Of a stretch of DNA of 64,000 bases, positions 5,554-41,579 are shown in pieces; positions within the stretch are counted from its first letter, which is position 1; each line of letters opens with the position of its first letter. The DNA is from Gekko japonicus. Lineage: Eukaryota. The stretch covers positions 548,136-612,135 of the forward strand of contig NW_015174861.1 of assembly GCF_001447785.1 (NCBI RefSeq), read 5' to 3'. A program made the translations under genes and the position numbers. Below the pieces are notes generated by a model that did no database searches, was not told where the DNA came from, and saw only the letters and a list, made by a program, of their open reading frames with translations.

Positions 5554-5622
5554 CTTTGCAAATCATGTTCTCCCTTCATTTTCTCTACCTTCGTCAACAT
5601 CTCATCTACTTTGAATGTTTTC
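5554..5622 (-). CDS. SUZ12: SUZ12 exon 4 (69 nt)
   Basis: tattacag|...|gtaaca; encodes KTFKVDEMLTKVEKMKGEHDLQ. I found no exon 5 in 1-5553, so the gene continues beyond the left edge. Confidence 0.96.
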
Positions 5623-8221: not shown

Positions 8222-8323
<102 letters not shown>

Positions 8324-8368: not shown

Positions 8369-8415
8369 AGCTATAAGATTGCGGGTACGTAGAAATCTAT
8401 ATATCTGTGTTGGTT
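8369..8415 (-). CDS. SUZ12: SUZ12 exon 2 (47 nt)
   Basis: ttctctcacag|AA CCA ACA...GCT|gtgagt; encodes PTQIYRFLRTRNLIA. Confidence 0.97.
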
Positions 8416-9699
8416 CTGTGAGAGAAAATAAAACAAGCAACCAATTTGATACTTTTGATACTTTTTCCACAAGTACAACAGTACTAAACACCCCAAATAT
8501 CAAGAGAAGTAAGCATTTTTAACAGTAACCTAAAAACTGATGCTACCACTAAATGATGCTACTGTGTGACATCGCCAGCTATGTACAAATGGTACATATA
8601 AATACATCACAGTATGTTTAATAAATTCAGAAAGATACCTTTAGCATATACAAGTGTGGCCAATACTTTAGATTTGTAATATCATTTTATAGAGATGAAA
8701 CTCATTGTTTTAAAATTCTAACCAAATTTTCTGTCACCGACTCTCATTTTGAATAACCACGAGGAACAGCACTGATTCCTGTATACAAGTTGTTTTATTA
8801 CATTTGTGAGTAAACAACTTTAACGTTTTTTTTCTATGGAACATATGTGCACTTGAATGCTAAAATACCAACACATTTGGACAGGGTAGAGGCATTAATA
8901 GTAACTTACTCAAGATGTACAAGATTTCTTGTACAGTGAATTGCCTAGTTACAACTCAGCTTTCCTTAAAAAGTTTCTTAAATATAAACAATAAAACAGT
9001 CTCTTAAAGATTTGGCCAAAATAGGCTTAACACACACACACACTAAATTGATGATGCCCTTATCTTCCAGCTACATCAACTTACATTTGTATCATAAACC
9101 ATATTAAATGCTTACTAATAATTTCAACCTACAATATTTTTCTGTCTTGAGGAATATAAGACATGCTTTGACTGTACTACAGGCAGTTACACTGTTGACT
9201 TTTCACAATGCAGTTAAGTTGCTCTTTTATTATCAAAGTCTGCTGGAACTACTGTGAAACCTTTCAAGTTTAAATACACACCAAGCAAACGAAACACACA
9301 AAACAGCAGTATCTTGGGTAATCTTACAACCAGCACTTGGGCAGCATCTCCTTCTTACTTATGTTTTCCTCACAATCACTCCATCCCAACACTTGATCAA
9401 GACACTCTCTTTTTACAATGCAACTTAAACATGAAATTCATAACTTTCTCCTATGCAGGTAATCAACATAACGCATCATAAGCCCCTTTTCATTCCGTAA
9501 ATGCTAGTAACGCATTCGGCATACTTAGTTTACACTTTTAATTATTATGGGATGTCCACAATTCAACAAGAATAGGACAAAACAATTCCTGAACATCAGA
9601 CTTCCGAAAATATCTTTAGCTCTCTTTCTGCAGGAACTCTCAAAGGCACGAAAAAAGATATTCAAAACAACAAGGTATCATCTTACAGGGTCTCGGCGG

Positions 9700-11070
9700 C
9701 CTGGAGACAGAAGGGACCCCCAAACGCAACCCGAGCAAGAGACGCAATCTCAAAAGCGTTGACGTGGGAGTGTACGACAGCACCTCGTTAATGAAACAAT
9801 TAGTAAGGCACGGATTTCCCTACGCCCCCCAATCCCCTCGAGCTGACAACTCTGACACAGAAGCAACAGCTCTGCCTCCAGAGCCCCCCCCCCCCCCGCA
9901 ACCTCGATTGCCAACTCCCCAGAAAGGTTCGCATCGCGCACACGGGGCTGAAAAGGTGCCTTCGCCGCGTCCCCATAAATGAGCGCCCAATGCGGCTTCT
10001 CTCCGCCCATCCCACCTCGGCCCGGGGAATAGCTGGAGATCGCCCTGGCTCTGCTCCATCTTCGGCTTCTTCACTGGCGGGAGGGCCGCAGCCGAGGCGG
10101 CCGCCGCTGAGGACGCCGAGGAGCCCCCGCCACCGGTACCGCCAGAATAACTACTGCCTCCGCCGCCAGCGGCGCCGCCGGATTTGCCGCCCGGGGTGGC
10201 GGCTGAGGTAGAGCCAGCGAACCCCCCAGCAGCACCAGCACCACCTCCTCCTCCTGCCGCAGCGGTGGCGGCGACGGCGCCTCCCCCTCCGCTGGGAGCA
10301 GCCGAGCTGGGCCCCGCGCCGCCGCCGTGTTTTTGAGGAGCCATGAGGGCCTCTTCGCCGGGGCGGGAGTGTAGCGGAGACCGGCAGCGAACGGGGGCGC
10401 GGGGGAAGGCAAGGGGGCCAGAGGCAAGGTGAGGTAAGGAGGAAGTGGAAGCGCGGCGCTTCAACTCCTCTAAGTCTCCCCCGCTCCGTTCTCCTCAAGC
10501 GCCCTCTCTATCCAGCCAAACCCGACGGCATCGCCGTCGCTCCCGCCCCCTCCGCCGCGCGGCTATTGGCTCCTGCGATGGCGCCGTGCTGCGTCATTGG
10601 TCAGGAGAGAGCCCGCCCAGGCGTGACGCTAACGAAGGCCCTGCAAGAGTTTGGTTGGACCGCGCGCTTCACCGCTGGGAGCTTTCCTCACCCCCCCTCC
10701 CTCGCCTTCCTCCTTTGAACTGAATTCGCGGGAAAGCGGCGCTGCTCCTCCTCTTCCCTCCCCACGCTTGCGCTGCCGAAGTGCACGATGGGATAGAATT
10801 CTTCGTCTAACCAACGACTCGGGTGCAGCTCCCTCAGAGAGCGCGAGCTAGCCCGCCCGCCTGAGATTGACAGCTCCCAACCTCCAGTCCGTGTTTTGTG
10901 GCATCCCCCACCCCACCCCGCCGCTAATTAAAGGAGTCCGCGCGCGGGAACGGACGAAGGCAGACAAGCCACCAAGCTAGTGCCTTGCCCATGCTGCAGA
11001 ACGGGAAGGGGGGGGGGGTCTGCTTGTGGTCTACCATTGGGAGCCGCAGCCGGGGGGAGACCGCCTTTGA
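9700..11070. promoter_or_regulatory. SUZ12 CpG island and promoter
   Basis: Very GC/CpG-rich. Contains CCAAT boxes on the minus strand (ATTGG at 10565 and 10596), YY1-like GATGGCG (10578), a CRE-like half site TGCGTCA (10590), canonical E2F site TTTCCCGC (minus, 10728-10735) and CHR-like TTTGAA (10714-10719). SUZ12 is an established E2F target. Confidence 0.85.
10016..10344 (-). CDS. SUZ12: SUZ12 (PRC2 subunit) coding exon 1; 3' boundary uncertain
   Basis: ATG at 10344 reads MAPQKHGGG, then a Gly/Ala/Ser tract, then ALPPVKKPKMEQ, matching the SUZ12 N-terminus. It lies in a CpG island. The first donor is AG|GTGGGA after 10016 (329 nt, phase 2; see findings). Confidence 0.85.
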
Positions 11071-19779: not shown

Positions 19780-20170
19780 TCACATACAGCGTCCCAAGCC
19801 GCCCTCTGAAGAGTCCATCTTATCACCCTCGTTAGGCTTTGCTTCTGAGTCGTAGATGTGCCTCGGCTGAAAGCAATTCAGTTTTTTTCCCCCAGAAGCC
19901 AGAAATGTCGCAGTTGCACTGGGGAGCCGCTGGGCGGCTGCCGAAGGAGTGAGTGGCCTGTCTAGGCAGTGACTTGTGCCCGGGACACCGGAAGTAGAGG
20001 CGACGTTCCTGCATGTGCGCGTGTTGCTGGGCAAGGAGCTCTGCGGACAGATCCAGAGGCTTTCCGGATCATGGCGGAGAGGGTTGAACAGCGCATTGAG
20101 GATCGGATCCCTGAGCTAGAGCAGCTGGAGAGGGTCGGATTATTCACTCACAAGGAGATCAAGTGAGCAA
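19780..20170 (+). promoter_or_regulatory. UTP6 CpG-rich promoter
   Basis: CpG-enriched. ETS motif ACCGGAAGT at 19987-19995 and NRF1-like TGCATGTGCGC at 20010-20020 lie just upstream of the ATG. A ZNF143-type ACTACAGTTCCC is further upstream at 19399-19410. Confidence 0.75.
20071..20162 (+). CDS. UTP6: UTP6 (U3 snoRNA-associated protein 6, SSU processome) exon 1
   Basis: MAERVEQRIEDRIPELEQLERVGLFTHKEI(K); donor AA|gtgagc. Confidence 0.97.
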
Positions 20171-20226
20171 GGCAGAGGCAGGCTGCCTTAAGGGTCACGA
20201 GGGCAACAACTCTGACCATTGGGACG

Positions 20227-20449
20227 TAGGGTTGCGAAGCTCCAGGTGGTACCTGGAGATATCCTGGAATTACATCTGATCTCCAGATTAATGAGATCAC
20301 TTCCCCTGGACAACACGGCTGCTTTGGAGAATAAACTCCATGGCATTATATCCCACTGAGGTCCCTTCCATTCCCTCCCGAAAACCGGCTATGCTCAAGT
20401 TGCACCCCCAAATCTCCAGGAATTTCCCAACTAACAGTTGGCAACCCTA
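20227..20449 (+). mobile_element. MITE (TAGGGTTGCCA-TIR family) in UTP6 intron 1
   Basis: TAGGGTTGCGAA / TTGGCAACCCTA termini; same interior as 19488-19700. Confidence 0.85.
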
Positions 20450-21102
20450 GAACTTGAGAGGGATCTAGACCAAAGTCTAGATTTGATCCTTGGGGCTAAG
20501 AACTTGTCTCAAAACAAATTTGTAACAAAGTCCTGTATGTATGCGAGGACACATATTGCTGTAATAAATCTAGGATGCCATGATTCCATTTTCCCACTTA
20601 TTAATGCTGATTATAATCCTGATGGTTATGCATAAATGTTTTTGACCCATGGTAATTTTTAGGTATTAAGGATGGAGGGGTTTGCAAATGTGTAATATGT
20701 CCATTTGGGTGACTCTGTCTCCCAATTAATGCTTCAATTGATACTTGCTTGTTTTGATTCTCATATGAACACTATGCTTGTTTTTTACATATCTGGCTTC
20801 TAATTCTCTGACTCTTAACAACTGATGGCCCTGGTTTGCCACTTAAGTAATGGAAAGTCAAGTTTTGTGAAAACATTGCTTAATTCAGCTTTCTTTTCAG
20901 TGTATGGTTTGGTCAAGGAAACCCATTCTCAACCTAGAACTGCAGAGTTCTGCAGAACAAGAGTCTCCCCCAGGAAACAGCATTAGGAATCCATATAGTG
21001 TTTCAGGCTATATTAAAGTGCTAGATCATTGTTAGGATACTCCTGATTGTGCTATAGCCATTTATTCCCCAAACAGAGGTGTGGAAGATAACTTTCTGTG
21101 TA

Positions 21103-21290
21103 TAGATCAAGATGGGTAGCCATGTTACTCTGTCTGTAGCAGTAGAAAAGAGCAAGAATCTAGTAGAACCTTAAAGACTAACAAAATTTGTGGCAGGGTA
21201 TGAGCTTTTGTGAGTCACTGTTCACTTCTTCAGGTATCTGCCACAAATGTTGTTAGTTTTTAAGATGCTACTGGACTCTTGCCCTTTTCT
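21103..21290. mobile_element. Penelope-derived fold-back fragment
   Basis: Arms agaaaagagcaagaatctagtagaaccttaaagactaacaaaatttgtggcag / ctgccacaaatgttgttagtttttaagatgctactggactcttgcccttttct around a hammerhead-like core. Confidence 0.75.
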
Positions 21291-21711
21291 GTGCATAATC
21301 TGTGCAAGCTGTTAATGTGATACTTAAAGCTCACTTTCAAACTACACTTTCATTTAATCTTGGGAACAATTTGGTGAATTAATTCAAAACTCTTAAAGTG
21401 AATTATAATTGCCAGTTTAATATAGGAAAGCGATGAGAAGCTGATTTAATAAAAATCCATTTCTAGACCCCTCGATTACAGAGAAATGTTTGCAAATATG
21501 AAGGCACTATGAGATAAAAGGTAGGAAGGAAGTGATCAGGTAGGAATTATGATTAGGGTTTGGGATGTTATATGGGATATATATTTTTCTGGTACTCTTC
21601 ATGTTGAACACAGTTTGTTATGTCCCTTGTTTATTTAGGCTTCTCTCTCCTGCCACCACATTTCCCATTAAAAACTTGCACTTTCAGAAGGGAGGTCTAT
21701 ATTCTGTGTAT

Positions 21712-21900
21712 AAAAACATAAGGAGAGCCCTGCTGGATCAGACCAAAAATCCATCCTAGTCTAGCATTCTGTTTTCCAGGGTGGCCAACTGAGTGTCTCT
21801 GGGAAGTCCCCAAACAGAGTATGAAGCCAATAGCTTTGTTGCACTGCTGCCTGCCACTGGCATTTAATTATGGCTAATATTTATAGACAGGCTTATCCTC
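21712..21900 (-). mobile_element. CR1 LINE 3' end fragment
   Basis: aacataaggagagccctgctggatcagacc...ccatcctagtctagcattctg matches the reverse of a typical squamate CR1 3' end. Confidence 0.6.
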
Positions 21901-21941
21901 CATTAATATACTTCATTCCATCAAAACGTATAGAATAAATT

Positions 21942-22030
21942 AGAACAAAGTCTGAGTCCAATGGCACCTTTAAGACCAACAAAGTTTAATTCAAGGTATA
22001 AGCTTTCATGTGCAAGCACACTTCTTCAGA
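21942..22030 (-). mobile_element. Penelope terminal repeat fragment with hammerhead core
   Basis: gagtccaatggcacctttaagaccaac...agctttcatgtgcaagcacacttcttcag. Confidence 0.75.
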
Positions 22031-22123
22031 ATAAATTAGAGTTGAATAAAGTTAAGATGATGTTTTGTTCTCCTGAGAACGTTTTAGCACATAAATCTAG
22101 ATATTAGATGACATAATCGTGAT

Positions 22124-22526
22124 CAGGGCTTTTTTTGTAGAAAAAGCCCAGCAGGAACTTATTAGCATAATTGACCACACCCCTGACAGTACAGCTCATT
22201 AGCATATTAGGCCCTTGGAGGGGAGGGAAGGAAGGCCGTTTAAACGGCCTTCCCTTGGCTTGCTCAGGTGCCCCACAGCTGCAGAACACCCGGGTAAGCC
22301 AGCCCTTGGACAGGCCAAGGAAGACATAAGGAGGTACTTAAATGCCTCCCCGATCCTTCCAGGGGCCCCCCTGGCCCACTCACCTCGGAGTCGCTGGGGG
22401 GGGTGTCGCTCTCCAGGCCTTCCCTCTGTAGCTATGCACACAGATGTTTTGGCTGTAGTGGGCATGGCCAACTCTGAAGCCAGCCAGAACTCTGTTCCTG
22501 TGCGTTCCTGCCCCAAAATAGCCCTG
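22124..22526. mobile_element. hAT MITE with perfect TSD
   Basis: TIRs CAGGGCTTTTTT / AAAATAGCCCTG; 8-bp TSD ATCGTGAT at 22116-22123 and 22527-22534. Confidence 0.9.
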
Positions 22527-22975
22527 ATCGTGATGCTTCCTGGACTTTTGTGAACCATCTGCTGCAAGTGAGGTGAAGCCAGGATTGGCTGTTTGTTCTG
22601 GCAAAGAGATGTTTTAGGGAAGAAGCCAGTAGTATGCCAGGAAACAAAATGGTGGGTGCTGTTGTATTCATGGGCACCATGTATAGGATACTGTTGTAGA
22701 AGAATGAACAGGGAAAGAAAAGGAACTGAATACTTTCAAATATTGGCTGTCATTTGATTTCTTCACACACACACTCTTATGTATAAGCATTGGAATTTAT
22801 AAGTAGTATGCAGTTATAAATGGAGCTGTGGATAGATGTAAGTCAGTCTAGCCAACACCAGTTGTCATATTTAAAAATGCAAAATTTTAGAAGAGGTTTT
22901 TATAAAATGGTACAGTGAAGGTATATTGTATGGATCAGAACCATGACAGGATGCTACCTTCTTACATTTCTGTAG

Positions 22976-23060
22976 GACAGTTATTAAGAAGACCTCGGCT
23001 CTAGAATATAAAATACAGCGGAGAGCGCTTCATAAGGAGGATTTTATCAGTTATATTCAG
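22976..23060 (+). CDS. UTP6: UTP6 exon 2
   Basis: tgtag|...TVIKKTSALEYKIQRRALHKEDFISYIQ|gtaact. Confidence 0.97.
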
Positions 23061-23919
23061 GTAACTTTTCTATGTAGAGTTCTCTCTTGATATTTATCTC
23101 GGTTATCTCTTTACATCAATTGTTTTTGTCTTTTTTCCCTGTCCTTCATTACACAACTCAAAGAAGACTGATTAGCGGCTACTGTACAGTTTGGCATACG
23201 AAGAATTCCAGATTCTGATTCTGGTCATGTTGTATCCTGTCTTAAGGATGTTTGAGCAAATTGTTTTGGTCCCAGTTCTGTGGATACTCAAGGCTTAAAT
23301 ATGTTGTGCCAGAATTTTCATCCACTTGTGGTATAACTATAGGGGTGCAGAGTGTCGTGTGCATTGAGACAGAATCCTCAGTACTGGGCAACCTTATTAG
23401 TTTAGCCCCTGTAGAATTCCAGTTAATTCTGCTATGGTGAGATGAGAGTGTCTGAGTTAGGCTAGGCTGGTAAGAAAAGGAATCTTTTAAGTGAATTACT
23501 CCCAAGAGGCTCAAGACAACCTGTTCTGCCACAGGCTCCAGGAGTACCCCTCATATAAAAGGAAGGAAGAAAAACTAGCTGGTCCTGGCAACGTGTTGGC
23601 AGAATGGGCCATCAGCGTTCTGCCACTACACTTCTGTCTTTAGGAAGAATATGGCTTAGTTAACTCTGCGTTTTCAAACTTCAATAGATATAGTAATAAA
23701 TCATATATGCAGTATGGGTGTGTATAACTGATAGCTAAAATTGTTACTGGGATTAATTAATGTGTTGGCTTTTCCCCAGCCCTTATGTCCCAGACGACCT
23801 CCCTTAATTGTCATTATCTTTGTGTATTTGTCTAAATGATAGATGTGTGGGCTTGGCATACTAGCTGCCCAGTCTTGGATAATCCTGCTGTTCTTACTCT
23901 AAATATTTTTCCTTCCTAG

Positions 23920-23961
23920 TATGAAATCAATCTGTTGGAATTGATTAAGAAAAGAAGAGCT
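23920..23961 (+). CDS. UTP6: UTP6 exon 3
   Basis: cctag|YEINLLELIKKRRA|gtaagt. Confidence 0.97.
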
Positions 23962-24053
23962 GTAAGTAGACAAGTAACTGAAAATTTGAAGAAGTGGTTG
24001 GATTATTTTAAAAGACTGCAATGCTGGTAATTGTGTCTTTCCCCTCCCCTTAG

Positions 24054-24146
24054 CGCATTGGCTACTCGTTTAAGAAAGAGGAGATTGAGTACTCTATTGT
24101 GCAGCGGATACATGGCGTCTTCAAACGTGCCACAACAAAATGGAAG
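24054..24146 (+). CDS. UTP6: UTP6 exon 4
   Basis: cttag|RIGYSFKKEEIEYSIVQRIHGVFKRATTKWK|gtaatt. Confidence 0.97.
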
Positions 24147-26092
24147 GTAATTTTTAAAAATCCCATAGAAATGGATGGTTTTGTATAATGTCTTGTGTAA
24201 CGTGACATCAGGAAAACAGTTTAACTAACCTGGTTTGTGCCATCCAAACTGGTATGCCACTTATTGAAAATATTAAATATGAGGGAATTTCATTGCTAGA
24301 AAAAGAATAACCACAGTCAGATGGCATGGAGCTGCTTTTGGTGAGCTCAGTATTGAGGTCTGTATGGTGAAGATGGGGGCTGGCTGGCTGGAGGACCAGA
24401 TCCCCTGCAGCCATGCTGCTCAGGGCCAAACACCTGTCCCAGTCACTGTGTCACTGCTGCCTCTTGCCCTTGGGCTGAAGAATCCTGACAGTGCTCAGTA
24501 AGAGGGATGGGCCCAGAATTTCAGCAAAAGGTAGAAACCTCTGAGGTGTCTTCTGATTTCATTCTGAGGGAAGTGTTTGTGCTTCAAAGCACCATGTGTA
24601 TTGTAGCTTCTAATTGCTACCCTATGTGAAAAGGTTGCTGCAACAGCAGTCAGGTCAGCAGGACTTTGCTTCCTTGTAAAGCCTCCTGGTGGCTGTCAGA
24701 AAAGGAAGGATCCGAGAAGAGAGATCGAGAGCTTCCATTCAACAGCTTAGTCTGAGTGAGGGAGCCCTGCTTCTTATCTGTTGAGACCCAAGTATGTGGG
24801 GGGATTAGGAAGACCAGCAGTAGTGACAGCGATTGGTTTAGCAGGAGGCGTGGGGAGAAGATTAGAGGTAAAAGCTTCCAGTGTGGGATGAGAATCCACA
24901 TGCCACCCCCTTTCAGCCATCCTTTCTTTCATTTCCAACACACTGATCGTTGAAGAACGCCCTCTTTCCAACATGCTCAAGGGTCCTCCCCTTTCTAAAA
25001 AGTATACCCGTGCAATTCCCTCATCCAGGTTGCTTCATTGTTATTTTGAATTGTATATTGTTCTGGATTTGAATGGTAAGATGCTTTGGGAGCCAGCGTG
25101 ACTGCAAAGAAAGGGTATAAAAATGATCAGCCGTTCCGGATTCCGAACAACAAACTTGTCAGGTTGAAAGCAACACCTTGTGTGGGGCTTTGCAGCCCTC
25201 GCTGTGGTGCTTCTCACCAACAGGTACTCCATGTAAAAAGAGTGGATGCCCAGCAAGCCGCTGCAGTGTGCCACATCCTCTTGTAGCACAGCTGAGAGAG
25301 GGGCCTTGGAGGCTCGGTGGCTTCTGTGTGAACATTGTCTAAATATTTTCCTTGAACGATGGGAGGGGTTTAATGCCAAAATATTGTGCTCTGGTTTCAT
25401 TTTTAAAAATTCACGAGCTGAATACTGTAGATGCTATTGGGTGTTCTGAAATGCTCACAAATGAATGCACAGCGACTGCATGGCCCAGTGCATAATTTTC
25501 TGGGTTTGGATTTGTGGATTCAGTTCTCAGCTCATCTTGGCCTCGTGTTGAGTTGTCACCTTTCTCATTTGGGGAATAAACATGGTCTATCTGTAGGGTC
25601 AGCTTGAAAACGAGACACAATAAATATTTGTAGTTGTTGTAATGCCATACAAAATGATGACAGAAAAGTAGTGCAGATTGAGAAATCAACAGTGGTTCTG
25701 GAGGAGTGTATTGGCAAGAGGTGGGGTTGTCTTGACCTGCTTACTGGCTCTGAGCCTACCACCTGGTGGCCTTGCTACTCCAGTGGATCCTTCCACTGCT
25801 TAATCTCCTCAGTCCTTGCACAGCCCCGTTGCTAAAACTGACAAGCTATGCTGATTTGAGTATTTTTCCATACGTGTATTGGGTTGTTCTTGGTGACGGC
25901 GTTTACCTAGCCTTGGGTATACATTTCATTGAACCATTAGAGGGAAGGATGGGGATAAAGTGAATGAGGCCTTGTAAAGAGGCATCCGTAGTGGCTGCCC
26001 CAAAACATAGGCACCTCTTCCCCATGGAAACACCAGTGAGCATGTTCTGTGAGGCCCTTCTTTGGGTGTTGGCTTCACAAGGCAAAGGTTTG

Positions 26093-26328
26093 TTTATTTG
26101 TTTAGATATTTATATCCCACTTTTCCTCCAGTGGAAACCCAAAGCAGCTTACAACATCATTCTCCCTTCCTCTGTTTTATCTTCATAACAATAACCCTGT
26201 GAGATAGGTCAGGCTGAGAAAGAGCGACTGGTCCGAGGTCACCCAGCAAGGTTTCATGGCTGCGGGGTGGCTTGAACATGGGTCTTCTTCCAGATCCTAG
26301 TCCAGCACTAATCACTATTAATACTGGG
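26093..26328 (-). mobile_element. tRNA-derived SINE (older Squam3/MIR-like)
   Basis: tttatatcccac...aacaataaccctgtgagataggtcaggctgaga...ggtcacccagcaag. Confidence 0.7.
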
Positions 26329-26554
26329 TCTTCTGATGTGCTTGGTTTAAATTTTAATTTAATTTCAGATCAAATGAAATTGATTTTAATTTAATTTTAG
26401 ATCAAATGAAATTAAAACATTTTTTGGCTATGTTAGAATAGGCTGTAAAGTCCAGCGAGTAACTCAAGCAGAGAGAACAGAAGAAAAGAGTTGTAATGCA
26501 GGGAATCTGTTGCATACTTTATGGTTGCAGAACATGAGTATATGTTTTCCAACG

Positions 26555-26770
26555 GCATACAATGGATGTGAGGAAACGCTTCTTCTTTTGTTTCTGGAGG
26601 AGAGGGCTAGAATCGACGGTCACCTAAGGGCAATAAAGCGATGCTCCTTCATGTTCTGGCTAGCATACAGTGGATGTGAGGAAACGCTTGCTCTTTTGTT
26701 TCTGGAGGAGAGGGCTAGACTCGACGGTCACCTAAGGGCAAATAAAGCGATGCTCCTTCATGTTCTGGCT
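26555..26770 (+). repeat. Tandem duplication, 2 x 108 bp
   Basis: gcatacartggatgtgaggaaacgc...gcgatgctccttcatgttctggct repeated at 26555 and 26663 with few differences. Confidence 0.95.
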
Positions 26771-26934
26771 CCCTCTGCAGATCGTGGGATTTTTGGTTGT
26801 GTTCCTATGTTGCTCCCAATTCTTTTGCTGCCAGTTGTTACAGGAAGGTTTATTGTGTGTTGGGTGAATGGTATATAGAAAATAGCACTTGTGTGCTCAG
26901 CTGTTTCTTTTTTCCCTTTGCTTCATCCCAATAG

Positions 26935-26982
26935 GATGACATTCAACTGTGGCTGTCTCATGTTGCATTTTGCAAGAAATGG
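26935..26982 (+). CDS. UTP6: UTP6 exon 5
   Basis: aatag|DDIQLWLSHVAFCKKW|gtgagt. Confidence 0.97.
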
Positions 26983-27276
26983 GTGAGTATTTGGGCATGA
27001 CGTCTCCCATTCAGGCTGCATGAATTGATATAACACACAACAAGGGACATCAGCACAGAACAGGAGAGAAAACTAGAACTGTTGCTGCTGTGGGATATTT
27101 TATTCCCAGTGGAGTATCCCAAATGCTTTTTCCAGAAAATCAGCTGTCTGTTAGAGGAATGTAAAATATTGTATTAGTGTGCTTGTACTGAGAACTGAGG
27201 GGCTGCGGTGGCTCAACTGGTTAAGACAGAGGAATGTAAAATATCATTGTATTAGTGTGCTTGTACCGAGAACTGA

Positions 27277-27630
27277 GGAGCTGTGGTGGCTCAAGTGGTT
27301 AAGACGCTGAACTGCAGGCTGTGGAAGGTCGGTAGTTCAGCAGTTCGAGACCCGGGTGCCGCATGACGGAGTGAGCTCCCGTCTCTAGTTCCAGCTCCTG
27401 CCAACCTAGCAGTTCGAAAGCAAGAAATTGCAAGTAGATAAATAGGTACCACTTCGGTGGGAAGGTAACAGCGTTCCGTGCGCCTTGGGGTTTAGTCATG
27501 CCGGCCACATGACCACGGAAACGTCTTCGGACAGCGCTGGCTCTTCGGCTTTGTAACGGAGATGAGCACCGCAACCCTAGAGTCGGATTCGACTGGCTTT
27601 TGAGCAAGGGAACCTTTACCTTTACCTTTT
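27277..27630 (+). mobile_element. Full-length Sauria SINE
   Basis: tRNA-like head, (ACCTTT)n tail, 13-bp TSD TACCGAGAACTGA at 27264-27276 and 27631-27643. Confidence 0.95.
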
Positions 27631-27808
27631 TACCGAGAACTGATATCGCCTGTCACTTGCTTTGACCACTGACTAGCACTGATAAGCCATTGAGCTTCTT
27701 TCAAGGAAGTACTGGGTGCAGTCTTGGCATTGGTGAAGAACTTGATCAAAGTGACTGAAATTGACTGAAGCTTTTATTTGTACTCGCTTAACACCAAGCA
27801 CACCCCGT

Positions 27809-28010
27809 CCTGGATGGCCCGGGCTAGCCTGGCCTCCTCAGATCTCAGAAGCTAAGCAGGGTCGGCCCATGGATGGGACATCACCAAGGGATACCAGGGT
27901 CACTATGTAGAGACAGGCAATGGGAAACCACCTGTGACTGTCTTTGGCCTCGAAAACCCTATGGGATCCCCATAAGTCAGCTACGACCTGATGGCGCTTT
28001 CTACCACCAC
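27809..28010 (+). mobile_element. 5S rRNA-derived SINE-like element
   Basis: cagatctcagaagctaagcagggtcggccc...ggatgggac...ataccaggg, followed by a BovB-like 3' end. Confidence 0.75.
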
Positions 28011-28707
28011 CAGCACCAAGCGCAGGGTTGGCCTATGGATTTTTCTCTTTCCTTCATATATGGGATGAAGCTTGGAATGCTTCAGATTCTGCGGTCTCTG
28101 CAACAGTGGCCCTTTGGAGGAATCTGTTGTGAAAAGAGGGAAAAGAGCATCAGCTGCAGGCTTACTAGTGTAACCCTTCTTGGGATGCCAAAAAAACACC
28201 ACAAACTGATCCCCCCCCCCCCCAGAACAAAGGGGGACATTTGATCCCCCCCCCCCCAAGTAGCAAGAGGGTACTTTTCCAAGATCCATCTTTACTCCCC
28301 TCCCCCAGTAAGATTGCAGGTTAGCCTCAACAGTACTCTTCAGGGTGAGGTTTCTCATTATGCAAGAAATGACTGTGTGAATTGTCCCAGATGTTTTCAG
28401 AATCTGTCAGAAGACAAGGTCACTGTGCTTTCCTGGGTGACTGCAAGCACTGTTTGCCTTACAAAGGAGGCTCATTTGCACTCTTGGTGCCATTTGGGTT
28501 TTCTTGCTTCTCTTCCAAACCGCTCTCTTGGGGATGGTGGATGCTAAAAGTTAAGTCTCTTGCATTGCAGAGGTGGATGGATCTTTTCCACTGTTAATTG
28601 TACTAAAAACCAACAATATAGCCACTCTTTGTAATGCAGGCGAGTCTATTTCAGGCTGAAAGGTTAGCAACACACCAGTGTGACTGATGCCATCTGTCTC
28701 CTTACAG

Positions 28708-28771
28708 AACAGGAAAATACAGCTGAGCAAGGTGTTTTCTTCCCTGTTGGCCCTTCATTCAAATAAACCAG
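28708..28771 (+). CDS. UTP6: UTP6 exon 6
   Basis: ttacag|NRKIQLSKVFSSLLALHSNKP|gtaccg. Confidence 0.95.
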
Positions 28772-28850
28772 GTACCGTAACTTAACAGCAGTAATTTGCA
28801 AGCAGAGAGGTATGATAAGCTAGTACTGAAATATAATTGAGGGTTGTTTC

Positions 28851-29056
28851 CAGTGTTCCCTCTAAGCTGAGTTAGTGTGAGCTAGCTCACAGTTTTTTAG
28901 CCCCCAGTTCACACATTTTTGTCTCAGCTCAGGAAGGATGGCTCCAGAGCAAACTGATTTATGCAGTAGCCAAATCGCTTGCTCACAACTTTACTGCTAG
29001 TAGCTCGCAAAATAGAATTTTTGCTCACTAGATTCCACAGCTTAGAGGGAACATTG
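28851..29056. mobile_element. hAT MITE
   Basis: TIRs CAGTGTTCCCTCTAAG / CTTAGAGGGAACATTG; reverse-complement copy at 55943-56148. Confidence 0.85.
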
Positions 29057-29089
29057 GTTGGAAAACCCCCCCAGGAAAAAAGAACAAGG

Positions 29090-29465
29090 GAGAAAAACCC
29101 TTAAAATCCAACAACTAAACAAAGTTAAAAAAGAAAAAAAAGATATATAGAGAGACAAAATTATAACAGTGGTGGCAGATCTATACATAAGTTTCTGTAA
29201 ATGGTTTCCAAATATCTAAAAATAAGTCCATATGCAATTGTTGTGTATATGCCATGTGTTCAGCTATTGAAAGAATTCTGAGGTCCTCAGTGCACTGATT
29301 TGTGATGGCATTCACCAATACTGAGTAACAGCACTTTTTCCGGAGGTGGGTTTTTTATCTTTCCTGCGTCGTAATATGACCCCTTTAGCTGTAGTAAGGG
29401 CCTGAAAGGTCCATTTTTGTTGACCATCATTTAGCCTCCAAGAGATGGGCAGCTGGTTTAAATAG
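29090..29465 (-). mobile_element. L1-clade LINE ORF2 C-terminal and 3' remnant
   Basis: The minus strand reads YLNQLPISWRLNDGQQKWTFQALTTAKGVILRRRKDKKPTS, resembling the L1 ORF2 C-terminal motif (compare TTARILSAKYWK near 49800). Confidence 0.55.
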
Positions 29466-30748
29466 TTTAAAAAAAAACATAAGCATCCTCATAAATCCAT
29501 GCACAGTCTAATACAAAGCAACTTCTTTCCAGAAAAAACTGAATGACTGAACACACCCAAAGCATGTGTTTAAGGAACACTTCCTGTGAGTTACAGTGCC
29601 AACAATTAGACACCTTACTCAGTCCTTTGCTAAAGAGTCTCTGTGGTGTCCAGGATACCCTAAACATAATTTTTTGCTCAATGAGTTGCAGCTTTAAGAT
29701 ACATGGAGAGAGCTGGTATAAACTTGGCCATATCCAGTTGCTTTGGCAAAACAGGGAGATCTAGTTTTTTGTTCCATTCATTGCTGAGACTCTGCATATT
29801 TCAGGCTTGTTTCACATTAAACAACAAACAGAAGTTCCCTGGTTAACACTGTGGGTTACCACCACATTTTTTCTTTGGGTGCTTTCCTGTGGAAAGTAGC
29901 ATTGAGTTGAAAATGGGGGGTGACTATCTTTCCCTCCTGAGGATGTTTCTACCAGGTGTTGGAAAAGACCATTCTGTGCCTGGGATCTTGGAGATCCCAA
30001 AAGGACTATAGAGACCCTCTCCCCTTGCAGATTCATGATTTGCGATTTCACTTATTCTGGATCAAATCTCATTATACAGTCTCCAGCAAGTTTTTATTCC
30101 TACTATGCCATCATTGTAATAATTATGCAGTTAAATTTTGCTGGGAATCTCATGGTTTTGGTGCTGGGTTTTGGAGGCAGAAGATCCCGGTCTCCCAGTA
30201 TCTGTGGATTTAGCTGTTTGCTGTTATCACTTGTGAACGGCAAGAGTCCACCATATTACTGAGCTACATGGATCTGATGTGGTCTGAAACTGCTTCAGGC
30301 ATTCCGTGTGTTAAGCCTTTTCCCACCCAGGTCTTCTGGATTAGATGGGTTTTTGTTGTTTGTGAACAAGTACAATCCAGATTTTGCCTCCACCACATTT
30401 ATTATGATGTATGTAGTGTGTCTTCAAAACTGCCCTGAGACCGGTGTGTGTGTGTATACACACACATTTTCAAAGTTTATATGAATAGCAGTTACTTGTG
30501 TGAAAATATGTGGTAGTCATTCAGTCAAAGATAGTGACTGCATGTTTTCAGATACACAAATGCTTAATCCAGGGATTTGTTACTGCCATATGCAGTGAAC
30601 TGATAGCATCAACATTAACACAAGTACTGGGGGCAAAAATCGAGTAAGCGGGAATACAGCGTAGATTCTTTTGTTTGGAATAATGTCTTATTGCCTGTTA
30701 GTTTTGCAGCAGCTGTATGCAGTAACAGCCAGCACCTTTCTGTTACAG

Positions 30749-30867
30749 CTCTGTGGATTATGGCTGCAAAATGGGAAATGGAGAACCGCCTGTCATCTGA
30801 AAATGCCCGGCAGTTGTTTTTGCGTGCATTGCGCTTCCACCCAGAGTGTCCCAAACTTTATCAAGAG
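30749..30867 (+). CDS. UTP6: UTP6 exon 7
   Basis: ttacag|(A)LWIMAAKWEMENRLSSENARQLFLRALRFHPECPKLYQE|gtagca; HAT repeat. Confidence 0.97.
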
Positions 30868-31054
30868 GTAGCATATGGTTTTGCTCTATATATAAATATC
30901 TATTTCTTATGTACAGATATATTCACACTTCTTAGCTCATAGAGTTATATGTTAATAGAACGTGTCATTAGGTTGTCACTTTCTACCCGGTAAATGTGTT
31001 CAGTGTGGTGGTTGGAGCCTTAGTTTTTATTGTTACTCCTTCTGTTTTCTGTAG

Positions 31055-31132
31055 TATTTTAGAATGGAGCTGATGCATGCTGAAAAGCAGAGGAAAGAAA
31101 AGAAAGTGTTTGAGCAAGCAAAAATGGACTTG
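31055..31132 (+). CDS. UTP6: UTP6 exon 8
   Basis: ctgtag|YFRMELMHAEKQRKEKKVFEQAKMDL|gtaaga. Confidence 0.97.
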
Positions 31133-31231
31133 GTAAGAAAACATGGGTGGGTGGGTCTGCCGTTGAAAATGCATGTATGTGGGTGAATCAGTTCCACTGA
31201 GGTGGTCAAGATGTGGCATTTGATGTGGTGA

Positions 31232-31496
31232 TTTGGTGTAGTGGTTAAGTGCACGAACTCTAATCTGGGAGAACCAGGTTTGATTCCCCACTCCTCCACT
31301 TGCACCTGGCTAGATGGCCTTGATAAGAGCTGTTCTTGAAAAAGAGCAGTTTCTGTCAGGAGCTCTCTCAGCCCCACCTACCTCACAGGGTGTCTGTTGT
31401 GGGGAGGGGAAGGGAAAGGAGTTTGTAAGCCGCTCTGAGACACCTTTGGGTAGTGAAGGGCGGGGTATAAATCCAATCTCTTCTTCTTCTTCTTCT
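31232..31496 (+). mobile_element. Squam3-like SINE
   Basis: tggtgtagtggttaag...ggtttgattcccc head, (CTT)n tail. Confidence 0.9.
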
Positions 31497-31599
31497 GTAT
31501 TAAGAGACAAGAATTACTGCCCCGTCTGTACTGGTTCTCCCATAGACTGTTCCCACACGTTAAAGCTAAAAAAAAGGCATCATGCGAAACCCTGCTGAT

Positions 31600-31822
31600 T
31601 CTTTGGTGGTGAAAAGTGCTGTTAAGTCACAGCTGATGTATGGTTGACCCTGAAGATTTTATAAGGCAAAAGACGTTCAGAGGTGGTTTGCCATTTCCTG
31701 CCGCCACATCAAACCCCCCCCCCAAGAACTTCTTGGTGGTCTCCCATCCAAATACTAGCCAGGGCCGACCCTTCTGAAATCCGATGAGATCAGGCTAGCC
31801 TGGGCTATATCCAGGTCAGGGT
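31600..31822 (-). mobile_element. 5S rRNA-derived SINE-like element
   Basis: ggtctcccatccaaatactagccagggccgaccc...ccgatgagatcaggctagcctgggctat. Confidence 0.75.
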
Positions 31823-32812
31823 TACTGATTTTTGTCCTTAAGATGTAGGCAGGGTTGAAGGGTGGTCTTCCCAGGGAAAACCTTGCATGTTAGGAGGAGG
31901 AGTGATGCTGGCACCGTGGTCTCCCATGCAGCAGATCTTCTGGGTTTTGCATCAGGAGCCTGGAAAGCTTGAGGTGCACTGTCTGTTCATGAAGGCAAGA
32001 TAACTGGCTCATAGAGCATTGATTTTAATTCATTCTTTCAGAGATCACTGGGAAATTGGTGTTCAAAAGTCTACGTCTCTGTATTTTATTCTATGGGATT
32101 TAGAGTTCCCTGTGCTCTGAGCCCTTGTGGGCATCTGATGCTAAATTCCGCCCTGGCTGCCAAAGGCCGGTTTGAATGAAGATGTTTTATGCTACTTCTG
32201 GAACATGCATTTCAGCTGATGGAGTACTGTAATAATAAAATTGGTTGTTTTAGGAACATGCGTTGACTCAAGTTTTAGTGAATATCTAGTTTGCTTTGTC
32301 CTGGCACTTTCATTCTCCTCCTTCTTCCCCCCCCCCCCCCAGTTAATTTTCCACTTGAAAATAAATATTTCCAAGAAACACACTAAGCTACCTACCTTAT
32401 ATTGAATCAGACTATTGGTCCATCAGGATCAATATTTCCTACTCTGACTGGCAGCACTTCTCTAGGATCTAAAGCTAACCAGTGATGTGTGCTTTCTTCT
32501 TCGACTGCTGCCTTTGCATTATAGTCTGATTCTTCCCCGATAAGTAATGGTGCCTGTGCTTTGTTGTGCTTTATGCAAGAAGGGGCTGCACCATCTTCTT
32601 CATTGTTGCGTCAGTAATGCTACTGTATATGGAGCATTCTTCTGAACTCACCTGCATGTGGAACCCTGTACGTGCACTGGAGCTCTATCGAGCTTTGGAT
32701 TGCATCAGTACTACGGAGGAAAAAAGGCTCAGTTGCATTCTATACATGTTTCTGTCTTCTCTGCATACGAGAGAGATTGTTAACTGTAAAATCACATTGT
32801 CTAAAATTTCAG

Positions 32813-32894
32813 GGTGAGTTCAGTTATTCTGATGACATACTTAATGGCGAACTGGCTCGAATAGTCTGGAGAGAGGCCATCCAGAAAATCAAAG
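32813..32894 (+). CDS. UTP6: UTP6 exon 9
   Basis: tttcag|GEFSYSDDILNGELARIVWREAIQKIK|gtaacc. Confidence 0.95.
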
Positions 32895-33290
32895 GTAACC
32901 AAATCCTTCCTTTTCTCCTCCTACCTCCGACTTCAGTTTTTTTAAAGAAGTAGCAGCCTTGCAGCATGTTTACTACCATGTATTCAGCCACCTTGGGGAG
33001 CCTTGAAGATGGCTGTCATTCGCTTCAGTTTGCATATTGTTAGTGTGCTAGGTTGGACGGCCCAAATGTCCGATCTGTTTTGAGCTGCGTGTGCTGAAAA
33101 ATGGGGTCTTGCAAAGGCAAGCAAATAATGCAGTGTATTGTTGGCGTAAACTGATGTTCCATGCTAGCTCTGCTTCGTTCACAAGCTGCTCGGACGACCC
33201 TTTTCCTCTCATTTAATAGTTGACAAGAATTAGGGTGCCCACACAGCTCAGAACACCCATTTTTAGCCCCTCTCTCTCTCTCCATTCTAG

Positions 33291-33372
33291 GTGCGGAGTT
33301 TCAGTTGACGCTGCTCTCTATTGCAAAACTGTTTGATTTTACACAGGACTTCCAAAAAGAAATTTTGGACAA
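33291..33372 (+). CDS. UTP6: UTP6 exon 10
   Basis: ttctag|(G)AEFQLTLLSIAKLFDFTQDFQKEILD|gtaagt. Confidence 0.96.
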
Positions 33373-34038
33373 GTAAGTAGGCAGCAGTGGGGGGAGTGGT
33401 GCAGACAGTGAAGTTTCCATGGTTTGTTCTTCGTAAGGATTCATTGCAGGCATGAATTCGGCTTTTAGGTCTAGAGTTGTACTTTGAATACAGCTGAAAA
33501 AGTTGAATTGGATTCTGTAAATCTGCCCCATTGACTGTGGTCATGCATTCCCCCCCCCCCAAGTAACCTGCTTCTCCCCAAAAGCTTTGTGTAGGTGTGT
33601 GACTGGCTGGTCTAGTGCACTTCGTAGCCTTCTCCATCAAGTGGATTTGAAAACTTGGGAAATTATGAGAATAGATAGCTATCTTCTCTCCCCGCCCCCT
33701 GTTTGCAGTGAGATCCAGTGGCCTAAAGACAATTGTTGCATAGAGTAAACACCACAGTTCTTTAAGCCTCCTCTGTAGCACTGTGAACCTGTAGAATATG
33801 AACCTTCTGTTACCTTTCCTACAAAAGGATAATCTAGCAGACTGCTGCATCTTTGACAGTTCCATCAGCTTCCCCCCCCCCCTCCAGGCAGCATCAGCAG
33901 TATGTCAGAAGGAGCAAAAAAGCATCTTTGCTTACAATTGCTTTGTTGTTTGAACAAAATAACTCTTCACTCCAGAGCCTCATAGCGAGAGAGTGAAGAC
34001 ACAGATAAAGGCATGACGTCACCTTTTTGGTTTTTAAG

Positions 34039-34220
34039 ATTGCAGGCAGAGCACGCTAACGATCCTTTTGTGTGGGATTACATGGCACGGCGGGAGCTGG
34101 AGATGGACTCCCTGCCGTCAAAAGAACACCCGTCTAAACAGTTAAAGGCACTTGAGGTGGCCCACAAAGAAGAACGGTGCTGTAGAGTGTTTGAGGAGGC
34201 CGTGACGTCCCTTCCCACAG
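34039..34220 (+). CDS. UTP6: UTP6 exon 11
   Basis: tttaag|LQAEHANDPFVWDYMARRELEM...EERCCRVFEEAVTSLPT|gtgaga. Confidence 0.96.
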
Positions 34221-34804
34221 GTGAGAAATTGTAGAGAGATGTATTAAGCGTTGATTCATGCTGTTCTTTTAGAATGGAGGTTTTGGAGGTGCGTGCAGTC
34301 ATCAACTTGCTGGAGCTCTTTACGAAGCAGTGGGCTTGATTAAAGGGCAGCATTTTCTACTGGCATTGGTTTTGACTCTCTCTCCCCCTCATCTTCTTGC
34401 GTCTTTCATTAACGTCTCTATGGTAATAGGTAGCAGTTCTCTCTCTAGCAAAAACAATACTGGGAACGATGCTGTTAATTTCAGCCAGTAGTCTCAAAGG
34501 GGAACTGGAGGCTTGTTCTGTACCAAGGTCTAGTTCTTGCAAACAGCAGGTGAGGTGGCAAGCCTGTTTTTCGAGAGGATCGCTTGAGACTGCAGGGGAG
34601 GGCTCACATAATTTAATGTTCCTCCATAAAAATAAAAAGCAATTCCCTGTATATGGAAAGCTAGGATTCAAAGGGAATGATTTTAGCATAGCCATCATCC
34701 AAGCACATATGTGTAATTTTTTGGTCTGTGTGTGTGTGAGAGAGTGAGAGAGAGAGGAAGCATTCGATCAACCTTTTGGTGCAAAGTGGTACAGTCCCCC
34801 TTTC

Positions 34805-35363
34805 ATAACTCCATGGCTGATTACTGTAATGGGGATCTATGTGGGGCTACCCTTGAAGGCAGCCCAGAAACTGCAGCTAGTTCAGAATAAAGCAGTCTGA
34901 TTGTTGTTGCGAGCCAGCTGACAGGAAGGGATCTCACCTATTATAAACCAGTAACTTGGATACCAGTTTGTTTCTGAGTTCAAATCCAGGTGCTGCTTAT
35001 GACTCTTAAAGCCCTTCGTGACATACCCCGTCTGAAAAACTGGCTTTCCCAGTATGTCCCCATCTGCTAACTCCTGTTCTTTAGACTGCCACCCTTTGGT
35101 GGTGCCCCCTCTGCCTGGCATGGTCTCGAGCCCATTCCTTTTTGAGCAGGAGCTTTCACCTTGTTGAATGGGCTCCCTGAGGAAGCAAGGGGGCACACCA
35201 TCACTATAAGTTTTTAGGAGGTCTTTCAAGGCCACCTTATTTGCTTGAGATGCAAGCTGCATGCATTGCGGGGTGAACTGGGGTTTAATTGCCCTTTGTA
35301 AATTTGGAATTTTAAGCTACCTTGAGCTATGGGGACAGGGTAGGGTATAAATATTTTAATAAT
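34805..35363 (+). mobile_element. L2 LINE 3' fragment
   Basis: Degenerate DYCN-YVGLPLK--QKLQLVQN coding motif of the L2 RT C-terminus. Confidence 0.75.
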
Positions 35364-36476
35364 TCCAGTCAAGTGATACCATCCTACCACATCTACTCTG
35401 TGGGAAATGGGCCAGTGGGTGAGTCTGGGGGCCACCATCATTTCCCAACCAAAGAGAAGCCCAAAGGAAATTTGAACACAGCCAAACTCATAGACTCACC
35501 TAGCTTCACTGGAGCTGGGTAGCAGACCAGAGAGCTTTTAAGCCACTCACTCCTGTGTGCACTACTGTGGAGCCAGAGACCTTCCATCTCTTCTGGGACT
35601 ACAGCATTCTAGCATGCTACAAAGCCTGAGTAAATGGGATCCAACCTGCAGCATTGCCAGAGCCTGCACCTCTCCCCACAGCCCCTTAGTGCCCTGTATG
35701 GTTGTATCTTGTGTGGTTGTATCTTGCCAATCAAGTGACCTTCACTCTAACTATTCCCTGTGCCCACCCGCACTTGAAACCCTCCATGTTTCCCATAATC
35801 TTTAACAACCTATTCAGTCTCCTCCAGGTCCACTATTTCTTCTGTTCCCTGTATTCTGTCCTAGCCCCTCTCCATTCTCTCCACTTTTGAAGACTCATCT
35901 TTCATATTTAGTGCTGGCATAGACAGAATGGAATCAGTGACAATAAAGTATTACACACTTTTAAAAAAAAAGGGGGAAATGGGCCAGGGGATTGGTAGGT
36001 GGTAGTGGATGATGGTGTCTTATAGAAGGACTGTGCCATAGCTTCCCACAGTGCAAAGTATTTGTTAGCCCTATTTATTTTATTGCTTATATATCACCTT
36101 AGCCATGTTTTTTCCAGGCAAATAAAACTGTTATACTGGTAGTTTTCTTATATGATTACATTCAGCAGTGATGACATTTAAATACTCCAAGCTGTGGCAG
36201 TGGGCATCCAATGAAACAATTCACTGTAGCAGCAAGATATTGAAAATAAACACATTACTGGGCAGCAGTTTAAGAAAAAACAGAAGCAGTTCAGCAAACA
36301 AGCAAAGCCAGCCATAAAAAAGAAAGAAGGAGAAAGCAAAGACTTAAAACACTGGATGCCAGGGAAAAGAGAAACTCTTTTACCTGGTGTCTAAAACTGA
36401 AGATGCCAAGCAAAGAGACGTGGAGGGAGTGCCACAGACATGTGCCACTACAGAGAAGGCCCTGGCAACATAGATG

Positions 36477-36845
36477 TTTTGTAGAAAAAGCCCAGCAGGA
36501 ACTCATTAGCATAATAGGCCATACCCAACAGTAGGAACTCATTAGCATATTAGGCCACACCCTAACAGCACAGCTCATTTGCCTATTAGGCAACACCCCC
36601 ATGCTACCAGAAGTGTGGTCATCCAGCCACACCCACCTATTGCTTCTTATTCTGTTTACCTTGTTTGTTGTCAAAACCCAGGGCGTTTTTGCATGTTAGG
36701 CCACACACCCCTAATTGTAGCCAATCCGAATGAGTCTCTGCTGTTGAGTGTGGCCTATTATGCTAATGAGTTCCTGCTAGGCATGGCCAGCTTGGGAGCC
36801 AGCCGGAACTCCGTTCCTGTGCGTTCCTGCCCAAAAATAGCCCTG
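36477..36845. mobile_element. hAT MITE, same family as 22124-22526 (left TIR lost)
   Basis: ttttgtagaaaaagcccagcaggaactcattagcata...gttcctgtgcgttcctgcccaaaaatagccctg. Confidence 0.8.
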
Positions 36846-37470
36846 GATGTTAACAACTTCATCTTAAGAACACTGGAATAAATTTTCCACTAACAGAAGG
36901 GGTTCCCCCCAGTTCCCTCTTCCTTCTGCAGGCCCCCAATTTGCCTCTCCTCCTGCTCTTAAGGGTCATCTGTCCACCAGGAGCCACATTTGGGGGAGAT
37001 CAGTGGAATGCAGCAGGAGGAGGGGAGGCAGGAATGCTCTGTTCCAAGAAGCACCTTGTGTGAGCAGAAAATTGAGCCTGGATGCAGCCCTCTTCTTCTG
37101 ACAGTACAGTGAGAGTAGCTAGTGCAGCAAAAGACCTGCCTTCTTCCTCCTGCCAAGGACACTGAACACTTCAGGAGTCGTTTCTGAAGGGGAAGTGCCA
37201 CCCACTTTTTGCTGTTTTGCTATGCCCAGTATGTATAATATGAGGGGAGAATATAGAGGAGGGTGGGCCTGTCTGTATTCCTCACAGTTCATTCTCAAGA
37301 GTTGTTCTTTTTCGATAAGCCTCGTACACTTTGTGAGCCATGTGAAAGTAAAAGGAATGAGCAAGAGGCTCAGTGTTGCTGGGATTGGGGGGCCATGCTG
37401 GTAGTTCTACATCTTCTCTGGGAGAAAAAGAACCTATGAATTAGCTATTCAGTCTTAAGAGAAAGTGCTA

Positions 37471-38103
37471 GATTCAAGTCCAGTAGCACCTTAGAGACCA
37501 ACAAGATTTTCGGGGTATAAGGTTTTGAGAGTCAGAGCTCCCCGCATCAGAAACTATTCCTCTTCTAATGTCATTTATGACATCAAATGTCAGCAGTTCC
37601 CTTCCACTCTCTACATCGGACAGACAGCTCAGTCCTTACACAAAAGAGCAAATGGACATACAACCAACATTAAAAACCACAACATTCAAAAACCAATGGG
37701 AGAACATTTTAATCTTCCAGGACATTCCATTGCTGACCCAAGAGTGGCAGTCCTCTAAAAAAGAAGCTTCAAGGGGAGATTACAATGTGAGATTGCTGAA
37801 TTTGAGTTCATTCACAAGTTCAGAACAGTGGACCCCTAGGGCTGAATAGGGACATAAGGTTTTTATCTTACTACAGATGCTAATTTTCTGTGCCCCGCCA
37901 TTTCCCCTCTAATCAAGCTGATTACAATGTGTATTGTACGTCTGCATTCTGAGTTCCTTCTTTGCAACATTCCTCCCACCTTCTGATTGGGATATAAGGA
38001 CTCAAAGATCTCCCTTCCCATTTGTATTTGCTAAACCTTTGACTTTCGAAAGGTTATACCCCCAAAATCTTGTTGCTCTCTAAGGTGCTTCTGGACTTGA
38101 ATC
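37471..38103 (+). mobile_element. Truncated Penelope-like element: GIY-YIG endonuclease remnant between inverted terminal repeats
   Basis: SSNVIYDIKCQQFPSTLYIGQTAQSLHKRANGH...KPMGEHFNLPGHS; termini gattcaagtccagtagcaccttagaga / tctctaaggtgcttctggacttgaatc. Confidence 0.9.
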
Positions 38104-38261
38104 CTCTGAAACCATGTCTTCTTTTTAAAAAGGTTGATTTCATAGGGATTATTTAATACTTGGGATTTTCTTTTGCTGACCTTGGAAGGGCAGGTGGTTA
38201 CTGTAATTGTTACTCTCTCTGAAGATCATAACTATCATTTTTATGTCTTTAACACTCCCAG

Positions 38262-38341
38262 AGGACATGTGGAAATGTTACATCACTTTTTGCTTGGAGA
38301 GATTAAACCGGAAGACCAATTGCGAAGAGTTAAGGCAGAAG
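38262..38341 (+). CDS. UTP6: UTP6 exon 12
   Basis: cccag|(E)DMWKCYITFCLERLNRKTNCEELRQK|gtaaat. Confidence 0.96.
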
Positions 38342-39231: not shown

Positions 39232-39309
39232 AGGCTGGAAAGGACATTAGGCACCTTCAATCAAGCTCACGAGTCACAGTTGCTACCAGCTTCATTGTAT
39301 AAACAATGG
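39232..39309 (+). CDS. UTP6: UTP6 exon 13
   Basis: ttgtag|RLERTLGTFNQAHESQLLPASLYKQW|gtaagg. Confidence 0.96.
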
Positions 39310-39456
39310 GTAAGGATGCTTGCAGTTCTGAGGGGGCCGCCTCACACTTTGCAGTTTCAAAAGTTACTGCCTCACATCAAACAGGAAGGCCAGAGGTGAA
39401 TCTTGTAAGGCTGCTTCTAAATGCTGACATTTTACCTTCAAATTACTCCTCTTCAG

Positions 39457-41481: not shown

Positions 41482-41562
41482 GACAGCTTGCCATTATGGA
41501 TTTTATGGGTTGAATGGAGTGAGACAGTGAATAGCAAGGCTGAAACTGAAGCTCTGTATCAG
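41482..41562 (+). CDS. UTP6: UTP6 exon 15
   Basis: ccacag|DSLPLWILWVEWSETVNSKAETEALYQ|gtattg. Confidence 0.96.
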
Positions 41563-41579
41563 GTATTGTGCATCAACAG

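Follow-up and report, generated by a model that had tools for sequence, protein, structure and literature searches.

A gecko SUZ12 locus that appears to lack the start of the ZnB helix: a very probable assembly mis-join at the exon 1/intron 1 boundary

In vertebrate SUZ12, the scaffold of PRC2, the ZnB segment (human residues 76-110) and the zinc finger together form the surface that binds JARID2 and, in an overlapping position, EPOP, according to the available passages of two sources (PMC9255955; bioRxiv 10.1101/2021.04.15.440052). The same passages report that losing the first 93 residues abolishes the binding of JARID2, EPOP, and PALI1. An earlier reading of the locus described here (the original prediction) had named the ZnB helix and the zinc finger as the docking surface for JARID2 and EPOP, in agreement with the available text of these two sources. 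No published work on gecko SUZ12 was found among the matches listed by a loose literature search, which is a weak sign of absence.

Two further systems provide points of comparison. False gene and exon losses have been described by Kim et al. in 2022 (PMC9516821), where, in the portion available, missing or erroneous sequence in vertebrate assemblies is biased toward GC-rich promoters and 5' exons; excerpts of PMC8848313 add that gap-closing often puts in inaccurate sequence. Genuine deletions that involve G-quadruplexes and polymerase theta are described for C. elegans dog-1 in excerpts of PMC4654259.

Here we analyzed 64,000 nucleotides of Gekko japonicus DNA (contig NW_015174861.1, positions 548,136 to 612,135), referred to as the window, in which the original prediction had described the start of the ZnB helix as missing from SUZ12 exon 1. 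The original prediction took the motif concerned to be conserved as far as Drosophila Su(z)12. It had offered three explanations: a 1-nt assembly error, an added lineage-specific exon, or a remodeled PRC2 accessory interface. The locus resembles vertebrate SUZ12 in its N-terminal Gly/Ala tract, in PVKKPKMEQ, in exons 2 to 4 and, as read in independent sequencing runs, in its complete motif and phase-1 splice. The difference from vertebrate SUZ12 is confined to the window letters at 10016-10049.

The end of SUZ12 exon 1 as read in the window

The minus strand encodes SUZ12, whose ATG is at 10344. The SUZ12 features considered here were read from exons 1 to 4, the zinc finger and VEFS exons being outside the window. 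The Gly/Ala-rich N-terminus ending in PVKKPKMEQ, a feature of SUZ12 orthologues, is present. Exons 2 to 4 are bounded by AG/GT ends, and their residues are identical to those of Paroedura picta SUZ12 (P0004) at 59 of 59 positions, in keeping with the original prediction, which had called exons 2 and 3 canonical. The features of the locus are as follows (X1, X2, X3, and X22 are the sequencing runs described in the next section).

10050..10344, minus strand: sound coding part of SUZ12 exon 1, starting at the ATG and ending with the first base of the codon that follows MEQ (translation; X2 record 12 has 0 other letters over 10050-10550)
10039..10049, minus strand: bridge of 11 nt that forms the junction of the missing stretch and is a degraded version of the exon letters following MEQ (X1 and X3 contigs, X22 reads)
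10038..10039, minus strand: site of the missing stretch, at least about 73 nt (loose ends of X1 and X2; size by arithmetic)
10016..10038, minus strand: intron-1 DNA misread as LQLFPGPR (X1 record 1 and X2 record 11 are continuous as genomic intron to 10038)
10010..10015, minus strand: GTGGGA taken for a donor, an intronic GT in phase 2 (no RNA joint to this GT listed)
8416..10038, minus strand: rest of SUZ12 intron 1, which differs by about 1% from X1 and X2 and is thus another haplotype (run comparison)
8369..8415, minus strand: SUZ12 exon 2, 47 nt, needs phase 1 (RNA joints)
8223..8287, minus strand: SUZ12 exon 3, 65 nt (15 X22 reads join exons 2 and 3)
5554..5622, minus strand: SUZ12 exon 4, 69 nt (4 X22 reads pass from exon 3 into exon-4 letters)
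9850..10700, no strand: CpG island (GC 0.69, CpG observed/expected 0.86) that takes in the junction, exon 1, and the promoter

The original prediction was right in its description of the end of exon 1. After PPVKKPKMEQ, the translated window frame is SQGDLQLFPGPR; the frame as a whole reads ...PPVKKPKMEQSQGDLQLFPGPR and is open to a stop at 9822. The ZnB start motif DHELFLQAFE is absent from the window letters at this exon end. The nearest donor (GAG/GTGGGA, after 10016) follows 329 coding nt. As had also been pointed out, it is in phase 2, exon 2 (8415-8369, AG..GT) requires phase 1, and splicing the two directly, in window letters, leads to a stop after 115 aa.

To place this departure among homologues, we used a set of 37 non-window proteins, of which 33 contain K[KR]PKME and 4 do not. 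DHELFLQAFE is found in 30 of the 33, and the other 3, all from birds, have DHDLFLQAFE. Two of the 4 proteins without K[KR]PKME keep the motif, and two do not include that region. Other geckos have the canonical motif as well, among them Gekko (P0032) and Paroedura (P0004). The window's exon-1 end departs well beyond the normal range of variation. No protein with the window's junction peptide was found, a weak result, since clustering at 90% conceals members and, of the 70 members, 15 were listed.

Independent DNA and RNA across the site

Four runs (4 samples, 3 studies), out of 24 matching runs listed, were aligned on 8150-10550. X1 and X2 are DNA contigs from one study, X3 comprises contigs from a second study that we guess to be RNA, and X22 comprises raw RNA reads from a third study; about 12% of the X22 run was read, and 38 reads aligned. 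The runs come from individuals other than the window source, and none of the 24 listed shares more than 0.84 of the window's words. The canonical end of exon 1 was found in three of the four runs (X1, X3, and X22). A copy of the window's junction was seen in none of the four, a count to be read with the points that contigs lose rare variants and that X22 offers little depth at the junction, with 3 reads at 10043 and 10049.

On the intron side, X1 record 1 tracks the window from 8150 to 10038, with 14 other letters and 4 gaps, and then diverges for 41 letters. X2 record 11 equals the window over 9884-10038 (0 other letters) and continues with 42 unlike letters, and the loose ends of X1 and X2 past 10038 carry the same unlike letters. 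On the exon side, X2 record 12 is identical to the window over 10050-10550, which covers 501 nt of exon and promoter. X1 record 2 reaches 10026 only with 6 other letters and then runs on for 53 more bases, which on the coding strand give LQAFE codons followed by the phase-1 donor A/GTGAGC. In both the X1 and the X3 contigs, alignment over 10026-10049 requires 6 other letters. All 3 of the X22 reads that cover 10043 and 10049 have the canonical letters, and X1 and X3 also differ from the window there; X2 contributes no more than the intron side plus, at 10049, the canonical letter, its exon end itself not being displayed. These alignments show that the window is intron at 10038 and below and exon at 10050 and above.

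The RNA and RNA-type data give the splice itself. X3 record 17 (depth 117) connects 8415 with 10026 across 15 intervening letters, which is the canonical splice, and 11 raw X22 reads have a loose end at exon 2 (8413) that reads ELFLQAFEK. An RNA joint to 10016 is listed in none of the four runs. As read in these runs, gecko SUZ12 is ordinary: its transcripts encode ELFLQAFEK-PTQIYR, and the start of the ZnB helix is intact. The original prediction had stated that finding the canonical motif in reads or cDNA from this locus would point to a local consensus error, and such sequences were found, in other individuals. Two of its three explanations find no support in these data: the X3 contig and the 11 X22 reads join the end of exon 1 straight to exon 2, leaving out an added lineage-specific exon, and a remodeled accessory interface conflicts with transcripts that encode ELFLQAFEK.

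Three other observations were made in the same alignments. X2 record 12 departs from the window at 10050 (10048-10050) through a GATCGATC junction into unrelated sequence, which looks like a proximity-ligation (Hi-C type) junction; a GATCGATC junction needs a GATC site, which the canonical Ile codon supplies and the window lacks. About 5 X22 reads match only the Ala/Pro-coding stretch at 10262-10294; they show 3 differences there, run into unlike letters at either end, and are likely another gene's mRNA rather than SUZ12 variants. At 8414, X22 reads appear to have a different synonymous Lys codon at the exon 1/2 junction from that of the window and X3, which is probably a polymorphism.

The missing stretch and its possible origins

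Between the flanks shared with the window, the runs have two loose ends plus 24 exon letters, and the window has 11 letters. Since the 30-letter parts shown of the two loose ends have no overlap, the net loss is, by arithmetic, at least about 73 nt; the loss is 77 nt if the X1 contigs overlap by 30 letters and 107 nt if they abut, and it may be longer. The true exon 1 would have 334 coding nt and end in phase 1. The loss takes in its last 39 nt, the genuine phase-1 GT donor, and the G-rich beginning of intron 1. The missing piece was not found elsewhere in the window, which has no match, at up to 2 mismatches, to two motifs taken from the loose ends.

The window still resembles a diverged motif because the intron letters at 10026-10038 imitate the ELFL codons of the exon, with about 10 of 13 letters alike (two of the differences were read from the X22 loose end, and the third was deduced from the His codon). 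The bridge at 10039-10049 resembles exon sequence and probably carries three changes. Two of these are listed, and the bridge letters at 10043 and 10049 agree with neither the exon side nor the intron side. A second copy that could serve as the template of the bridge was absent from the window within 3 mismatches, the only match being the site itself. An inverted repeat (I4, 71%) is no higher than the level common in this GC-rich stretch.

We consider it very probable that the exon 1/intron 1 boundary of SUZ12 lost at least about 73 nt through a local assembly mis-join. A poorly covered G/C-run within the CpG island would have broken the assembly, the two ends may have been merged across the imperfect 13-nt look-alike common to the exon end and the intron, and low-quality letters may have remained in the 11-nt bridge. 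That both DNA contig sets (X1 and X2) also break inside the missing stretch indicates that assembly is difficult here. A simple merge leaves the letters at 10043 and 10049 unexplained. The original prediction is likely correct as to the class of the event, an assembly error. Its specific form, a 1-nt slip, is not supported, since the flanks are unlike the window for 41 to 53 letters and at least about 73 nt are lost.

As far as the available parts of PMC9516821 describe them, the false losses of Kim et al. resemble the gecko case in their GC-rich first exon, CpG island, and missing bases, and in the apparent loss of a conserved element that independent data contradict. Unlike the cases in those parts of the source, the gecko loss was closed without Ns, and a plausible peptide and a GT remain, so that the site mimics a diverged exon.

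Alternatively, the window might carry a private deletion allele of the sequenced animal, most likely heterozygous, generated by end-joining at a G-rich replication block, a reading that we regard as improbable. The window haplotype differs from the DNA runs compared, and the missing part is G-rich on the coding strand, with a loss in the 50-300 bp range. The loss extends 5' of the G-tracts, and the short altered bridge is of the kind seen in polymerase-theta deletions, so that in size range, G-rich content, one-sided extent, and bridge the site is like the C. elegans dog-1 deletions as described in the excerpts of PMC4654259. In the loose-end letters printed, which cover the two edges of the missing stretch, the nearest G-run lies 13-19 nt from the 3' junction, whereas the same excerpts give a distance within 3 nt for most worm cases at single-fold motifs. 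Against this reading, the gecko site also has no read support (0 of 4 runs, from other individuals) and no bridge template elsewhere in the window, and there is no protein record of the junction, itself a weak point.

Selection also bears on this allele. Homozygous loss of Suz12 is lethal in mouse embryos and heterozygous loss is pathogenic in people, according to the available text of PMC6803372, and heterozygous mutations lead to overgrowth syndromes in people, according to that of PMC13471259. SUZ12 null alleles are under strong selection, and real ones should therefore be rare.

If the allele were real, its transcript could give the 115-aa nonsense product through the phase-2 GT. Alternatively, it could give an in-frame protein without the first half of ZnB, through a weak phase-1 GT after 9903. 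The frame through this GT is open through exon 4. This cryptic donor counts in favor of a real allele in being in frame and against it in fitting only 4 of 9 consensus positions. Spliced in frame, such an allele would, like the JAZF1-SUZ12 fusion and the SUZ12 delta-93 protein, lack the first half of ZnB and, by analogy with the available descriptions of the latter (PMC9255955; bioRxiv 10.1101/2021.04.15.440052), would be predicted to lose JARID2, EPOP, and PALI1 binding. JAZF1-SUZ12 is a tumor fusion, however, and SUZ12 delta-93 is an engineered construct, and no such transcript was seen in the runs. A living gecko with a natural SUZ12 deletion allele, either null or without half of ZnB, as a wild counterpart of SUZ12 delta-93 is accordingly a doubtful prospect; were it real, the locus would supply a reptile example of a naturally occurring SUZ12 allele, either loss-of-function or ZnB-less, private to one haplotype.

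Humans have a partial SUZ12 pseudogene. The window could similarly be a decayed SUZ12 duplicate, with the reads coming from the working copy; the intron divergence of about 1% from X1 and X2 would fit such a copy. Against this, X2 shows 0 differences over 10050-10550, exons 2 to 4 match at every residue compared, contig depth is flat across the stretch, and X3 has the window's letters at 9249 (in one of two contigs) and at 9530, where X1 and X2 differ, as alleles would. Neither neutral divergence across the exons and promoter nor lesions in the flanking gene were found at the locus. That gene, UTP6, provides a further control.

20071..48359, plus strand: UTP6, head-to-head neighbor, intact; control for decay of the locus (protein matches)

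UTP6 and SUZ12 are arranged head-to-head, about 9.7 kb apart. UTP6 has 19 exons encoding 596 aa, GT-AG ends at 18 of 18 introns, and a Pfam UTP6_C domain. Exact 6-residue words in the window account for all 596 residues of the predicted Gekko japonicus UTP6 (P0040), in accord with a window from this species or its nearest relatives, an identity that may be circular if P0040 was predicted from the same or a similar assembly. Its length equals that of UTP6 in three other geckos (596 aa), which indicates that the neighboring gene is whole. With UTP6 intact and exon 1 otherwise the same as in the runs, a decayed duplicate is disfavored, and we judge this explanation highly improbable.

A lineage-wide remodeled ZnB helix or an added phase-restoring exon, suggested by the window letters only and by the resemblance of LQLF to HELF at the protein level, is scarcely credible given that the RNA-type contig and raw reads splice the canonical exon-1 end directly to exon 2, the DNA contig has the canonical donor, and the Gekko (P0032) and Paroedura (P0004) proteins are canonical.

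Other features of the window and consequences for gecko SUZ12

A candidate hidden exon that a six-frame motif scan gave in intron 1 (LNIFFRAFE followed by A/GT, about 9633-9659, minus strand) was rejected: it is preceded by an in-frame stop with no AG between, and the RNA bypasses it. We take this look-alike as chance. A match of the post-junction frame to the read-through protein of a relative (P0005), which would point to the same deletion, scored 51, against a mean of 29 and a maximum of 58 in 300 shuffles, and was not counted. Upstream of exon 1, an ATG frame at 10347-10597 (minus strand) is like the N-terminal extensions of P0005 and of Rhineura P0037. This frame is interrupted by a stop and by a change of frame, and it probably goes untranscribed, since RNA coverage ends near 10450.

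Elsewhere in the window, a UTP6 intron at about 45150-45250 (plus strand) encodes FRRACKTELFCQAFE and then a stop. Its resemblance to ELFLQAF is by chance, and the FRRACKTELFCQAFE stretch is presumably the C-terminal tail of an L2/CR1-type LINE ORF2. The sequence at the window edge (1-300, minus strand) looks to us like a Bov-B/RTE LINE fragment. A weak GIY-YIG match at 37495-37755 (plus strand), below the Pfam cutoff (E 0.0008), may be the remnant of a Penelope-like element.

For SUZ12 itself, a gene model built on the window sequence would be truncated or mis-started, and the sequence could seed a false claim of PRC2 remodeling in geckos. As a very probable mis-join, the site would be a clear example of one that is free of gaps and leaves behind a convincing fake peptide and donor, in a gene whose transcripts in the runs carry the ordinary start of the ZnB helix.
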